From: an uncultured virus (IMG/VR IMGVR_UViG_3300038548_000322)
Taxonomy: Duplodnaviria > Heunggongvirae > Uroviricota > Caudoviricetes
Virus record (IMG/VR): IMGVR_UViG_3300038548_000322
Direction: 5' to 3' (one strand)
DNA length: 64,000 nt
The notes beneath the pieces are model-generated. The model was given only the letters and a program-made list of their open reading frames with translations, searched no databases and had not been told where the DNA came from. Positions 44,025-58,970 of this stretch are shown piece by piece. A program made the position numbers and the translations under genes. How positions within the stretch are numbered: position 1 is the stretch's first letter; every line of letters begins with the position of its first letter.

Positions 44025-44954
44025 TTACAGTCCCGGTGTGCCGTAAACCGCACGCGGGTCCGTCCAGTCCGGAATGTAACGTTCCGTGGACTTGTACCGC
44101 ATGGAATCGGTCTCGAAATCACCTTCCATCGACTTCTCCAGCCCGCGACGTTTCATCAGCTGCAAGCCGCGAGGTGCATCCGTCTGGACCCACCATGCAG
44201 TTGTGCTCGTGATACGCGACAGATTGGCCTGACCTTGAGACAGGAGTCCCATCGACAAGATCGGGTTGATGTCGTTGTTAGCTGTGCCAGCTCGCAAGAC
44301 GCTCTTCAGCAGAACTTCTGCTTGGAACACCTGACTCGGACCAGTGACAATCTTGAGAGGCTGCAAACGAATCCGCTTGCCGTTATTGTCCACGGCATTA
44401 CGGATCTGAATGAGCATCTGCTCAAGCGACGTCTGCGATAAAGCTGCAGCTGTCGTCAACAGGTTCGAGAACACGCCACCAGCAGATCCACCCGGTGCTA
44501 TTGGGTGATTGGTAACGTTCAGCGCTACACCGTCACCACCCACGAACGCACCGTTGAAGGCACGATTGAGGATGTTGGCGCAAAGCGTCTCTTTCGTTTC
44601 GATCATAGACTGGGCGAGATGCTCAGAATAGATCCGACCGATACGAATGTGGTCGCCGTCTTCGACCAAGACTTTGGTAAGCGCGAACGCCAGACCGAAG
44701 ACCTTGTAGACGTAACGCTGAATGAACAGCACTCCGCCTGCGTCGAATGTCACCGGGGTGCCGTCAGGCATCTCCGGCGCAGCATTGAATCCGAAGAGGA
44801 CTGGCTCTTCATGGTACGAACGGGGGGTACCCTTTCGATCCGTGAAAACACCTTTCCATTCATCGGCGCGTTGGTTGTAAATTCCGTCAAATGTCTCGTT
44901 AAGGATCGGCTCAACAATTGATCGGAAGTCGGTACTTCTCATTGGGACTGCCAT
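44025..44954 (-). CDS. major capsid protein (Mu gpT-like, HK97 fold)
   Basis: EEPVLFGF, LAQSMIETKE...ANILNRAF, GGDGV...HP, SLEQMLI, DFETDSMRYK...DPRAVYG. Confidence 0.88.
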   Translation of the reverse strand: MAVPMRSTDFRSIVEPILNETFDGIYNQRADEWKGVFTDRKGTPRSYHEEPVLFGFNAAPEMPDGTPVTFDAGGVLFIQRYVYKVFGLAFALTKVLVEDGDHIRIGRIYSEHLAQSMIETKETLCANILNRAFNGAFVGGDGVALNVTNHPIAPGGSAGGVFSNLLTTAAALSQTSLEQMLIQIRNAVDNNGKRIRLQPLKIVTGPSQVFQAEVLLKSVLRAGTANNDINPILSMGLLSQGQANLSRITSTTAWWVQTDAPRGLQLMKRRGLEKSMEGDFETDSMRYKSTERYIPDWTDPRAVYGTPGL

Positions 44955-47172: not shown

Positions 47173-47622
47173 CTACAGATAAGCGATGACGTCCATGGGA
47201 TTACAGGTGATCTGACCAATGAGATCGAGATCGTTGTACAAAACAAAACAGGCCTGCTCGGCACCCGTGCGTTGACGCACTTCGTTGGAGAGATCAACCA
47301 CCCATTTGTCGCCGCCATACTTCGGCACGCGTACAAATGCACCAACCTCACACCACTCGCCTTCCGGCCAAACTTCCAGAGAGTCGCGATTCTTAAAAGC
47401 GCCGGGTCCAAGCGCGATGACTTTAGCCACTTGAGTGTTCCAGAACTCAGTGTCTTGGGTTTCATCTAGAACAATGATCCCACCTTTCGTGACCTTGCGC
47501 GGTGAACGTTTCTGAATCAAAACTCTTGAGCCAAACGGTACCAGACCGGGATCGGCCTCCGGAAATGCTTGGTCGATTGAATCGTAATCCAAAGTTATTC
47601 GTGCGCTTGCTAACATTGTCAC
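47173..47622 (-). CDS. groES: GroES-like co-chaperonin
   Basis: PFGSRVLI...TKGGII...VIALGP...KYGG...NDLDLIG. Confidence 0.85.
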   Translation of the reverse strand: MTMLASARITLDYDSIDQAFPEADPGLVPFGSRVLIQKRSPRKVTKGGIIVLDETQDTEFWNTQVAKVIALGPGAFKNRDSLEVWPEGEWCEVGAFVRVPKYGGDKWVVDLSNEVRQRTGAEQACFVLYNDLDLIGQITCNPMDVIAYL

Positions 47623-53401: not shown

Positions 53402-53779
53402 TTACTGGAGCACAAAAACGGGCGGCTTGGGGTTGGCGAGCGTCACAGTAAAAGGGACGGTGTTACTAGGATCCGATTCCCGACCTCCCGTGTCTACGGT
53501 CGTCGCATGACAACTGTGCGAACCGAAAGCGAATGATCCCGCTGGTGCTTCCCATCGCTCATCAACGTTAGGCGCATTGGTATGCTGCCAAATCGGTGTG
53601 GAATTACCGTCGCAATAAATGTTGTAGCTTGCGATCTCATCGTTAGGTAGTGGCGCAGAGAAACCATTTTCATCGGGCTCTCTTTCCGTTGGTGCAACCC
53701 AAGTAAAAGTTTTTTGCACAGAACCTTGTGCGAATACCAACGAAGAGAGAAGCAACAATGCGAGGATGCGAATAGTCAT
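53402..53779 (-). CDS. secreted fibronectin type III-like protein
   Basis: Sec signal (VFA|Q), FTWVAP, YNIY, TTVDTGGRESDPSN. Confidence 0.65.
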   Translation of the reverse strand: MTIRILALLLLSSLVFAQGSVQKTFTWVAPTEREPDENGFSAPLPNDEIASYNIYCDGNSTPIWQHTNAPNVDERWEAPAGSFAFGSHSCHATTVDTGGRESDPSNTVPFTVTLANPKPPVFVLQ

Positions 53780-54006
53780 CAGCAATAAGACTCGTCACCC
53801 TCCGGAACTGAGCCCGAACTGATGTGTTTCGCAGGTGGGTCGGTCAGAGTCCCGGACGCGCAATAAATGTAACTGCCGTCCTCCATCTTGTAGATCTCGA
53901 CGTCAACCATCGCTACCGGAGCGAGGAACACTCCGAACATTATCACCACCACGAGCGCTAATAATAAGAGCTTGCTTTGCAGGAACGCTATCAATTTATC
54001 GATCAT
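53779..54006 (-). CDS. membrane protein
   Basis: N-terminal TM helix; coupled. Confidence 0.55.
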   Translation of the reverse strand: MIDKLIAFLQSKLLLLALVVVIMFGVFLAPVAMVDVEIYKMEDGSYIYCASGTLTDPPAKHISSGSVPEGDESYC

Positions 54007-56988: not shown

Positions 56989-57249
56989 CTAATCAGCGAA
57001 CTGTCTGCTCCATTTACCGTTGCGCAGCACGTGAGGTCGGTAATGTCCATCGACCATGATCGTAGCCAGATCTCCGTCTTGCGTACCGTCGCCTCTCGTC
57101 AGGAAGTGCTCCACCTTGATGATTTCGTGTTCGTACCGCTTAACCTTGATCACTTCTTCCTCGACCCGTGGAGCTGCTGCCACACTTGCAGCGGCAGCTC
57201 CTGCGGTCATGCCGAGGCTCTTCAAAAACCCTCTGCGTGTTTTATTCAT
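56989..57249 (-). CDS. twin-arginine signal protein
   Basis: TRRGFLK, Ala-rich h-region, AAA site. Confidence 0.65.
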   Translation of the reverse strand: MNKTRRGFLKSLGMTAGAAAASVAAAPRVEEEVIKVKRYEHEIIKVEHFLTRGDGTQDGDLATIMVDGHYRPHVLRNGKWSRQFAD

Positions 57250-57252
57250 GAC

Positions 57253-57486
57253 TTACTGAGCAATTTGCCAGTCAGTTGCCAGCAGATCCGTTTGTGACGT
57301 TAGCCACGGTACGAGATCTCCCTGCACCGTGCGTATGTAAACGTACGGCAGTGTCATCTTGGAATGCTCATCAGGAGTCTGCAGCTCCAAATATTGATCG
57401 GGACCATTCCACCCTTTGCGCGTGACGCGCAGACCGTTCTCCATTTGCTTAACTGCCCAGCCTATACCGTGTGCTTCGTCGTTCAC
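57253..57486 (-). CDS. tad2: DUF2829 / Tad2 family anti-Thoeris protein
   Basis: GWAV..M..G.RVTRKGWNG...PY.Y......VPW..SQTDLLA.DW signature. Confidence 0.8.
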   Translation of the reverse strand: MNDEAHGIGWAVKQMENGLRVTRKGWNGPDQYLELQTPDEHSKMTLPYVYIRTVQGDLVPWLTSQTDLLATDWQIAQ

Positions 57487-57501: not shown

Positions 57502-57708
57502 TTAACCAACAACCATTTCTGGCTCGTGTTCACCGTGACATTTCAATTTCGGGTCCGTGGGATCGTGACGCATGTAAATGCCGTCCTGATTTACCTGACC
57601 GCAAAAACAACAGGTCTCGACCGATGCATCTATCATCGCAGTAGGCGTCCGATGTGGACACCGACCTTGCCAGCACTTGGAACAAATATTATGCGACCAG
57701 CTGCTCAT
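57502..57708 (-). CDS. small zinc-binding protein
   Basis: CSKCW...CCFCG. Confidence 0.55.
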   Translation of the reverse strand: MSSWSHNICSKCWQGRCPHRTPTAMIDASVETCCFCGQVNQDGIYMRHDPTDPKLKCHGEHEPEMVVG

Positions 57709-57926
57709 AGCGGACTTGGTGCCTGATTTCTTTTTTCGATCAGTACAAGTTGCGACGGAGGGATCCAATACTGCCCCTGATTCTCCCGGCACAAGACATG
57801 TTCATTGGTGACCCAGAAACCATCTTTCAAGTCGTCGATGGACCAATGTTCGTGATCGGGCGTCGGTTGCTTGCGCGGTGCGCCTGCGACCATGAACGTG
57901 ACAAAAAAGGGACCTTCAATTGACAT
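57705..57926 (-). CDS. hypothetical protein
   Basis: Start MSIEGPF; GGAGG RBS. Confidence 0.55.
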   Translation of the reverse strand: MSIEGPFFVTFMVAGAPRKQPTPDHEHWSIDDLKDGFWVTNEHVLCRENQGQYWIPPSQLVLIEKRNQAPSPL

Positions 57927-58311
57927 ACATTTCCTCCCGTGAAATTCCTTCGACGTGCAGGAATTCGGTCGTAGGATCCCACCACGTTTTGTATGCAACC
58001 GGATGCGCTTCCGATCTGAGCGAGATACCTTTTTCGAACGCGCGATTCAAAACATTCGCGGTTACCTGCTCTCTCGTTTGCATCATACTGCGCGCCAGTG
58101 CACGTGAACGACTCTCAGCGATCTCGATGCACATTTGTTCGAGGCTTTGCTCGCTCAGATCGGCAGGGCAGAGCGCAGCGTTTTCTAACGCTTCTCTCGG
58201 GATCACGTAGTGCGCAGTGCCGTACGTCTTGTGAGTGTACTTTTCCGTCCCCGGCAGAGTAGCCGCAATGACAGCCGCGACCGTGCCCTTCAAAAATTTA
58301 CGTCTGTCCAT
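57916..58311 (-). CDS. Tat-signal protein made of rearranged major-capsid-protein-like segments
   Basis: DRRKFLK signal; LARSMMQTREQVTANVLNRAF and LSEQSLEQMCIEI match MCP segments. Confidence 0.75.
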   Translation of the reverse strand: MDRRKFLKGTVAAVIAATLPGTEKYTHKTYGTAHYVIPREALENAALCPADLSEQSLEQMCIEIAESRSRALARSMMQTREQVTANVLNRAFEKGISLRSEAHPVAYKTWWDPTTEFLHVEGISREEMYVN

Positions 58312-58597
58312 TGAACATCTCGTCCGGGAAACGACCCCGATTACCTTTCTTCTTTTTTGCCTTCGGCATCGCGCTGGTATTGCAGCGTACGTGGATCATG
58401 TTGAGGATCCACGCACGCCAGTCGTGACTATCACCTTGCCCCGGAAATTTGGGTCTACCGAGATCAGGCGAGTGTCCATAGCGAGTGCCGACGTCCTGTA
58501 GCTCCTCACGCATGAATTTCGCGATCATTTGCCGGTTCACACCTTCCCCGTTCGCCCACTGGATGATGTCGTCTGGAATTTCCACGGTAAACTTCAT
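58298..58597 (-). CDS. hypothetical protein
   Basis: 99-aa ORF. Confidence 0.55.
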   Translation of the reverse strand: MKFTVEIPDDIIQWANGEGVNRQMIAKFMREELQDVGTRYGHSPDLGRPKFPGQGDSHDWRAWILNMIHVRCNTSAMPKAKKKKGNRGRFPDEMFNGQT

Positions 58598-58610: not shown

Positions 58611-58970
58611 CTACAGATAGGCCAGTACTTTCTCCGTAACGCACCTCTGAGAGAGCGTTTTCGGCTCTTTTTTCGCGATTAGCTCTTTGCGGAAGTCAGC
58701 AACATTGACGGTGCCAATACCTTTGCGTTTTTCGAGTTTTTCGAAGATTTCCAGAGCCTTCGCAAGCTTCGAATTTTTATTCGGCGTTTTACCGGTCATC
58801 GTGAGCATCGAATTCGCGCGAGAGTGCATTTTGCCATTTGACTTCTTCGGGTCATCCCAACCGGGCACATATTTCTCCGTACTCTCGACCATCACTTTGT
58901 GACCATGCAAAAGTCGCATCGTTGCCGCCAGCTTCGTGTCGGGCACTTCGATTGTCAGTTTGAAACTCAT
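58611..58970 (-). CDS. basic hypothetical protein
   Basis: 119 aa, Lys-rich. Confidence 0.6.
   Translation of the reverse strand: MSFKLTIEVPDTKLAATMRLLHGHKVMVESTEKYVPGWDDPKKSNGKMHSRANSMLTMTGKTPNKNSKLAKALEIFEKLEKRKGIGTVNVADFRKELIAKKEPKTLSQRCVTEKVLAYL

Follow-up and report, generated by a model that had tools for sequence, protein, structure and literature searches.

The protein described here, 131 amino acids long, is encoded on the minus strand of a 64,000-nucleotide stretch of DNA from an uncultured tailed phage (IMG/VR record IMGVR_UViG_3300038548_000322), which we call the window. It joins a leader of the twin-arginine translocation (Tat) type to short segments homologous to phage major capsid proteins (MCPs). 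Comparative sequence analysis shows that the gene of this mini-protein is a real, selected accessory gene of the phage and that it belongs to a large family. Judged by profile comparison, the mature part of the family members is a mosaic of short tiles, each homologous to one of the best-conserved motifs in the N-terminal half of gpT-like HK97-type MCPs. From member to member, tiles (N-arm, E-loop, A, B, and a5) and alternative C-terminal modules have been acquired, dropped, or moved. We tentatively postulate, at somewhat less than even confidence, that the mini-protein mimics conserved MCP motifs and would serve as a competitive ligand for a factor that recognises unassembled MCP.

The window represents approximately the whole phage genome and encodes a DNA polymerase, a primase, helicases, a terminase, a portal, and a 309-amino-acid MCP. 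The nearest cultured relatives are the Caulobacter phages RW, GB2A, RLK, and KcrB, with an MCP identity of 77%. The mini-protein, its parts, and the resident MCP are located as follows; E-values are for each segment of the mini-protein taken alone against the MCP profile, and iE is the independent E-value of a tile hidden Markov model (HMM).

57916..58311, minus strand: open reading frame (ORF) of the mini-protein (Tat leader and capsid tiles), 131 amino acids plus stop, ATG start
58249..58311, minus strand: Tat-type leader, residues 1–21, with RRKFLK, hydrophobic region, and invariant P20; helix 3–18 in both AlphaFold2 (AF2) models
58183..58248, minus strand: tile A, residues 22–43, matching MCP 78–98 (E 1.5e-4); tile HMM weak (iE 0.087)
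58114..58182, minus strand: transposed tile a5, residues 44–66, matching MCP 164–186 (probability 96.8%, E 2.4e-10; tile HMM iE 1.5e-7), placed before the helix tile
58036..58113, minus strand: tile H, residues 67–92, the common core of the family, matching MCP 108–133, the most conserved helix of the MCP family (E 6.4e-19; tile HMM iE 1.1e-15)
57994..58035, minus strand: tile B, residues 93–106, weakly like MCP 141–153, below the tile-HMM threshold
57916..57993, minus strand: C-terminal β-hairpin module, residues 107–131 plus stop, WWD...FLHVEGISREEMY, not MCP-like
44025..44954, minus strand: resident MCP, reference for the tiles, 309 amino acids

Capsid tiles and leader of the mini-protein

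The relationship to capsid proteins is recovered at every level of comparison. BLASTP aligns residues 9–106 of the mini-protein to residues 65–153 of the window's own MCP (E 9e-10), and a tblastn search of 50,697 phage records matches only MCP genes, in 8 records (best E 2e-6). When a profile of 39 mini-protein family members is aligned to a profile of 32 MCPs with hhalign, residues 22–129 match MCP 78–181 with a probability of 99.6% and an E-value of 9.6e-25. The sequence-only reading of this DNA had aligned four MCP blocks by eye, with identities of 13/21, 9/13, 5/12, and 3/8; these counts are right, and the profile match whose absence it named as a refutation is clear. Beyond the single tiles, residues 94–130 align to MCP 141–182 (E 3.8e-4), and the leader (residues 1–22) finds no match in the MCP profile. 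An origin of the leader from the E-loop region of an MCP, suggested by one BLAST alignment to a single MCP (L007), was rejected, as residues 1–22 have no profile support.

The MCP 164–186 block stands ahead of the MCP 108–133 block in the mini-protein, and the remaining three blocks are colinear. The transposed block is recognised when aligned alone and is identical at 13/21 positions to a foreign MCP (L004), so the earlier proposal of a rearranged order, rather than a simple truncation, holds. Tile H retains the invariant residues of the MCP family. The N-terminal, E-loop, and C-terminal MCP tiles are not found in the window mini-protein by the tile HMMs, nor is there a match to PF10124. On its sequence, the mini-protein fails as an MCP in size, domain complement, and colinearity, and cannot be a shell subunit. 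The tile names ('spine helix', 'E-loop', and so on) rest on the HK97 topology, and MCP 108–133 is presumably the spine helix; a profile search of the PDB with the MCP alignment returned no match, and thus no solved relative by sequence.

Structure prediction of the mini-protein alone, proposed with the first reading, was carried out twice with AF2 using family alignments and yielded only low-confidence models, with a mean predicted local distance difference test (pLDDT) score of 59.7 and 60.0 and a predicted template modelling (pTM) score of 0.29 and 0.25. The predicted elements are the leader helix (3–18), a small hairpin (23–36), a long helix from residue 54 to 91 or 93, and a C-terminal hairpin (106–123), which scores best. 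These models point to no confident autonomous tertiary fold. A complex prediction of the mature mini-protein (22–131) with the resident MCP scored 0.00, which counts neither for nor against an interaction.

The protein begins with MDRRKFLK and continues with GTVAAVIAATLPG, a hydrophobic stretch of 11 uncharged residues (9–19) that is ended by the invariant helix breaker P20 in a Pro-Gly pair. The Tat motif consensus is S/T-R-R-x-F-L-K. Across the alignment of 39 members, R3, R4, F6, P20, L72, and S75 are invariant, which bears out the twin-arginine motif of the sequence-only reading, and 33/39 members match TIGR01409 at E<=0.05 (best E 3.2e-4). In its sequence features the mini-protein conforms to a Tat signal, the exceptions being the profile score, which falls short of the curated cut-offs, and the cleavage site, which is not clear. 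A search of viral contigs with a DNA pattern of the leader only gave 11 loci, comprising nine mini-proteins with tile H, one long FAD-enzyme-like Tat substrate, and one noise match; this leader variant travels with H-tile cargo, and the pattern search is thus no test of other cargo.

The gene is under evident constraint. All 12 long-form coding sequences (the window and 11 loci, 10 of these distinct) are intact. Pairwise ratios of non-synonymous to synonymous substitution (dN/dS) have a median of 0.24 and a range of 0.13–0.42 in the 64 informative pairs among 66, as estimated by the approximate Nei-Gojobori method (NG86) from pairs that are not independent. By region, residues 22–44 show a value of 0.035, making tile A the most constrained part of the gene, followed by the C-terminal hairpin (0.14), the leader (0.22), the helix (0.31), residues 94–110 (0.35), and residues 45–65 (0.44). 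Within these codon comparisons, neutral decay, which the earlier reading had named as the mark of a recombination remnant, is excluded, and purifying selection acts on the gene.

Family members, relatives, and the accessory locus

A word-indexed search yielded 76 clusters (90% identity) at E<=0.01. Long forms, of 113–142 amino acids and 58–100% identity, make up 51/76 clusters; the other 25/76 are short forms of 73–112 amino acids and 35–48% identity. Searched exhaustively with HMMER, a set of 1.84 billion representatives (50% identity) gave 313 matches at E<=1e-3. Among the best 150 of these, 119 are no longer than 170 amino acids, and 98 of the 119 carry RRx[FLIVM] within the first 45 residues, amounting to at least 98 leader-bearing representatives at 50% identity. 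Among the matches listed, inspection of the table indicates that all those longer than 200 amino acids begin at profile position 21 or later, and they are therefore MCPs or MCP fragments without a leader. The family occurs in marine, sediment, and freshwater-type metagenomes.

For a survey of tile content, the MCP alignment was divided into eight tiles, one each for the N-terminus, E-loop, A, H, B, and a5 and two for the C-terminal part, and the resulting HMMs were run on 171 leader-bearing members; homologues with a Tat leader on MCP fragments, which the first reading had suggested seeking, thus form a large family. Tile H was detected in 170 members, partly by construction because the retrieval profile contains it, a5 in 51, B in 43, A in 35, the E-loop in 8, and C-terminal tiles in 8, and 171 shuffled sequences used as controls gave no HMM match. 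For the tiles other than H, the differences in presence and order do not stem from the retrieval. The MCP order is Nterm-Eloop-A-H-B-a5-Cterm, and departures from it are common among the 171 members, with a5 before H in 49 and B before H in 29. The architectures are distributed as follows.

H alone: 61/171 members
a5-H: 23/171 members
B-H: 23/171 members
A-H: 17/171 members
A-a5-H: 12/171 members
a5-H-B: 10/171 members
Eloop-H: 6/171 members
Cterm2-H: 5/171 members
rarer tile orders: 14/171 members

The common helix tile reads ALARSMMQT.E...AN.LNRAF and is followed, by eye, by at least four kinds of ending: an immediate end, the WD..FLHVEGISREEMY hairpin of the window mini-protein, a ...GEGARRSVGVEGSPDRI tag, and a ...LEEIEVDI... 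tail. Two contigs each encode two leader-bearing paralogues with complementary tiles, which together hold most of the conserved motifs in the N-terminal half of the MCP. On contig L033 (3483–3848 and 7787–8116), one paralogue is A-H and the other is B (iE 0.019)-Eloop (3.5e-8)-a5 (6.5e-10)-Nterm (3.5e-4); on contig L078 (880–1131 and 1124–1486), one is again A-H and the other is Eloop (7.5e-9)-B (0.022)-Nterm (5.8e-6).

Further variation was seen within the family. The ...GEGARRSVGVEGSPDRI tag is common to several of the mini-proteins (e.g. L033 7787–8116) and to an otherwise unrelated 98-amino-acid ORF adjoining a mini-protein gene on another contig (L018, 1557–1853), and may be a portable C-terminal module. 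A ...D.DTG[IM][FY]... segment lies ahead of the helix tile in P0204 and P0173 (by eye also in P0156, P0159, and P0207). In a PHROG scan of 10 family members, five of them with this segment, 2/5 of the latter showed weak similarity (E 2.2e-4 and 9e-3) to families of virion structural, tail, and tail-fibre proteins, so pieces other than those of capsids may also serve as cargo. Two long forms (L093 4001–4402 and L094 1718–2113) have an insert or altered stretch (…PQRDLNCGLW… and …LNCGLWKENG…) between the helix and tile B, which shows local remodelling within otherwise conserved genes. A search of one genome per bacterial species found 11 loci, all full-length or truncated MCPs and none a leader-bearing mini-protein. 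None was found by tblastn among the cultured phages in the 50,697 records either, and the ESM Atlas gave no usable match. The automatic source names 'CcmL/EutN' and 'RdgC' attached to family clusters were discarded, as profile scans do not support them.

Close relatives of the window phage separate the history of the mini-protein from that of the resident MCP. In genomes G002 and G003 the MCP is 100% identical to that of the window, and the mini-proteins are 79% (long form) and 48% (an 88-amino-acid short form) identical; in G004 the MCP is 84% identical and the mini-protein is a 104-amino-acid short form. The whole accessory block varies, with identities of 88–89% for the upstream ORF o99, 69–76% for Tad2, and 58–78% for the ORF at 58611..58970. 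A simple truncation or recent copy of the resident MCP is ruled out by the pairing of identical MCPs with divergent mini-proteins, by the own-MCP BLASTP score, which is the weakest obtained, and by the transposed block. The resident MCP itself departs from the family consensus at the near-invariant helix positions A112, R118, and Q119.

The surroundings of the gene, all on the minus strand, comprise the following features.

58298..58597, minus strand: upstream ORF o99, 99 amino acids; its stop overlaps the mini-protein start, and it adjoins the mini-protein gene in most long-form loci
57502..57792, minus strand: 96-amino-acid Cys-rich ORF between the mini-protein and Tad2 genes, with several C..C pairs and no family match
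57253..57486, minus strand: Tad2-family gene, two genes downstream of the mini-protein gene (PF11195, E 9.5e-23)
56989..57249, minus strand: tat86, a second small protein with a Tat leader, 86 amino acids; a separate conserved family with no MCP tile

The mini-protein gene belongs to a cluster of small genes, all on the minus strand, that lies upstream of a 914-amino-acid ORF, which we take to be a probable tail fibre, although it has no family match. Its ATG falls within the last codons of o99 with a 14-nucleotide overlap, and because of this arrangement coupled translation of the two is suggested. Downstream, the order is the 96-amino-acid Cys-rich ORF, the Tad2-family gene, the 86-amino-acid ORF, and the fibre gene; a single ORF thus separates Tad2 from the mini-protein gene, and the distance is two genes instead of the three first described. 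Among loci with at least 1 kb of downstream sequence, Tad2 follows in 9/13 long-form loci; it does so in 1/6 short-form loci. The Cys-rich ORF is kept in most long-form loci.

The leader of tat86, MNKTRRGFLK, is canonical and scores 20.1 against TIGR01409, above the cut-off of 16.7. Its family comprises 44 clusters with T4, R5, R6, F8, and L9 invariant and occurs in only some relatives; tile HMMs found no MCP tile in its passenger of about 60 residues. PADLOC returned no match for the mini-protein or five of its neighbours and only a weak bGSDM match for tat86 (E 0.052), and tat86, o99, and the 24-amino-acid leader gave no tblastn match in cultured phages. The ORF at 58611..58970 on the minus strand was considered as a carrier of an MCP C-terminal tile: its residues 29–46 gave a tblastn E-value of 0.003 with 9/18 identities, but the tile HMM reached only iE 0.38, and the assignment was dropped. 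A scan for promoters and terminators found fewer sites than in shuffled sequences and carries no information.

Two features lie farther away. A small ORF at 53402..53785 on the minus strand has an N-terminus that by eye resembles a Sec-type leader, followed by a 'TW.APT' motif, and the same combination, again by eye, is present in relatives (L033 5809–6423 and L076 3138–3689). The occurrence of Sec-like and Tat-like leaders suggests that this phage group exports proteins by both routes. Within the head-gene block, the gene at 47173–47622 on the minus strand encodes a GroES-like co-chaperonin (phrog_3188, E 1.5e-8). It resembles phage-encoded co-chaperonins on which capsid proteins depend for folding.

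Possible functions

As a mimic of conserved MCP motifs, the mini-protein would compete for a partner, either a defence protein by which the host senses capsids or a factor of capsid assembly, and its Tat leader would direct the mimic, perhaps with a cytoplasm-bound partner, to the Tat translocon, the inner membrane, or the periplasm. We prefer selection for resemblance over retention of a fold because motifs conserved in MCPs for assembly stay near the consensus, in any order, in a protein that is not part of the shell. The Sec-like leader at 53402..53785 indicates that Tat is not simply the default export route of the window phage. The sequence-only reading had proposed an intact mimic of the phage's own capsid. 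What survives of that proposal is an intact gene under purifying selection, with profile homology to MCPs, a conserved Tat-type leader, and a place in a variable block that often contains Tad2. The part naming the phage's own MCP as the model does not survive: in BLASTP the own MCP is the weakest of 55, and identical MCPs are paired with mini-proteins that are 100%, 79%, and 48% identical.

Several points weigh against a competitive mimic. In that BLASTP comparison the own MCP reaches 38.9 bits vs 42.7–53.5 for the others. Tile by tile against 30 foreign MCPs, a comparison biased for H since these were retrieved with an H-tile pattern, the foreign protein is nearer in 26–30/30 cases for H and 24–30/30 for A, and tiles B and a5 are about equally near to resident and foreign MCPs. 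Tiles that are not closest to the resident MCP might be unlike what is expected of a decoy hiding the phage's own capsid. The near-universal tile H is, as stated, in part a product of retrieval. The window mini-protein scores below the curated TAT_signal cut-offs (20.3 vs 22.7 for Pfam, 15.7 vs 16.7 for TIGR01409), and no A-x-A cleavage site follows its hydrophobic region, with weaker candidates by eye around AAT/LPG. To our knowledge, the known capsid sensors are cytoplasmic, and a working Tat leader would take the mature part out of the cytoplasm; the leader is a poor fit with a purely cytoplasmic decoy. Tad2 is absent downstream in 4/13 long-form and 5/6 short-form loci. The mini-protein has no known partner, and ancestral packing between tiles within the molecule, if retained, could also account for their conservation.

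This last point underlies the main rival, which we regard as rather unlikely taken by itself: an old MCP fragment may have been exapted into a small Tat-exported envelope or periplasmic effector, active in superinfection exclusion, receptor masking, or envelope remodelling, its resemblance to MCPs being history preserved by packing. The conserved Tat-type leader agrees with such a role, as do the second, unrelated Tat-leader protein nearby and the Sec-like small ORF, by which the phage appears to invest in exported proteins, and the position of the gene in a variable block upstream of tail-fibre or terminase genes. So does the distribution of constraint, which is strongest on tile A (0.035) and the non-MCP C-terminal hairpin (0.14) and not on tile H (0.31). 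However, the tiles retain MCP-consensus residues despite their changed order and number, and non-circular rearrangements of the kind of B-H-A or A-a5-H-B would be incompatible with one conserved fold. In addition, paralogues of one phage carry complementary MCP tiles, and AF2 gives no confident fold.

The remaining explanations are less probable still. It is improbable that the mini-protein is a dominant-negative weapon whose capsomer-interface tiles cap or mis-pair the MCPs of co-infecting relatives, the resident MCP being spared by its diverged helix. The nearness of tiles H and A to foreign-clade MCPs would fit (with the retrieval bias for H), as would the departures of the resident MCP at A112, R118, and Q119 and the absence of the gene from the closest cultured relatives (RW, GB2A, RLK, and KcrB, at 77% MCP identity), and structural-protein mimicry against assembly has a precedent in CpmB and Rcm (PMC12409344). 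Against it, the leader would remove the protein from the compartment of capsid assembly, and tiles B and a5 are as close to resident as to foreign MCPs. We give very little credence to a blocker of the Tat pathway, in which the TatBC receptor is taken up by a strong leader whose passenger folds poorly, and the phage benefits from the reduced export of host Tat substrates; the strong conservation of the leader and the low-confidence passenger fold are compatible with it, but it does not account for a passenger that is always made of MCP tiles, and the neighbouring tat86 suggests that the route is used rather than blocked. If the gene were a capsid-gene fragment left behind by recombination, devoid of function and Tat-like at its N-terminus by coincidence, this would suit the short, partly rearranged sequence with no Pfam domain beyond the leader. 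Such a remnant is already contradicted by the 12/12 intact long-form genes and dN/dS values of 0.13–0.42, by hundreds of diverged relatives with an invariant RR..F, and by a start apparently coupled in translation to the upstream ORF, and its probability is close to negligible.

Returning to competitive binding by conserved MCP motifs, the leader could be given an active part. Tat carries folded proteins and complexes, and because of this we consider a 'hitch-hiker' expulsion, in which the mosaic binds an MCP sensor or a competitor's MCP in the cytoplasm and the leader pulls this target to the Tat translocon and from there out of the cytoplasm, or keeps it trapped in the membrane. Although we hold this scheme to be quite unlikely, it would, if true, explain the use of Tat rather than Sec leaders by all members, the occurrence of conserved virion motifs in any order, the complementary motif sets of paralogues, and the association of the gene with Tad2. 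Should the resemblance be the function, export-tagged mosaics of the most conserved virion motifs would represent a new class of conflict protein, with a bearing on capsid sensing by bacteria and on the answers of phages, and a part in infection would fall to the Tat pathway. Were the capsid ancestry a matter of history only, a new exported protein would still have been born from a structural gene through repeated shuffling of short tiles.

Comparison with known systems

Full-text literature searches, with subscription journals outside their coverage, turned up no account of capsid pieces joined to a Tat leader or of such a decoy, and the family appears to be undescribed. The premise that hosts recognise capsid proteins is documented. 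The Thoeris cyclases ThsB1/B2 form a complex with the MCP (PMC12578639), and the TAC defence chaperone senses short linear motifs of unfolded phage structural proteins (bioRxiv 10.1101/2024.02.24.581848). In these systems the host recognises MCPs or short structural pieces, so a mosaic of motifs could compete, and Tad2, an anti-Thoeris protein, is encoded two genes from the mini-protein. Such a sensor might be triggered by a decoy just as easily as it is blocked. The literature supports only the premise of MCP mimicry.

The closest parallel in mechanism is offered by CpmB and Rcm of the SaPI satellites, which mimic the scaffold protein of the helper phage (PMC12409344). There, too, a mobile element encodes a small protein similar to one of head assembly, and the similarity is presumed to act through competition for a binding site; CpmB and Rcm are cytoplasmic, satellite-encoded scaffold mimics that bind the MCP. 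The mini-protein, in contrast, belongs to a complete phage that itself encodes replication proteins, a terminase, a portal, and an MCP, and it combines MCP motifs with an export leader; any binding to the MCP would be hypothetical.

Among the components from which the mini-protein is assembled, the gpT-like HK97-fold MCPs (Mu gpT type, PF10124) are represented by residues 22–106, which are profile-homologous to MCP 78–186. It differs from them in its length, 131 amino acids vs about 300 for an MCP with N-arm, E-loop, P domain, and A domain; the first two of these and all of the C-terminal half are missing from it. One tile is out of order, and an export-type leader and a non-MCP C-terminal hairpin are present. 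With Tat signal peptides (TIGR01409, PF10518) it shares RR-x-F-L-K and a short uncharged hydrophobic stretch followed by proline, whereas its passenger is a phage capsid-derived mosaic instead of a cofactor enzyme, and its export is a prediction.

Superinfection-exclusion proteins such as T4 Imm and Sp or the lipoprotein Ltp of TP-J34 rely on Sec or lipoprotein signals, and none of them is known to consist of virion-protein motifs. Like these exported or membrane-bound proteins, the mini-protein is small and accessory, carries an export signal, and varies between close relatives; it differs from them in its construction from virion-protein motifs and in its Tat-type leader.

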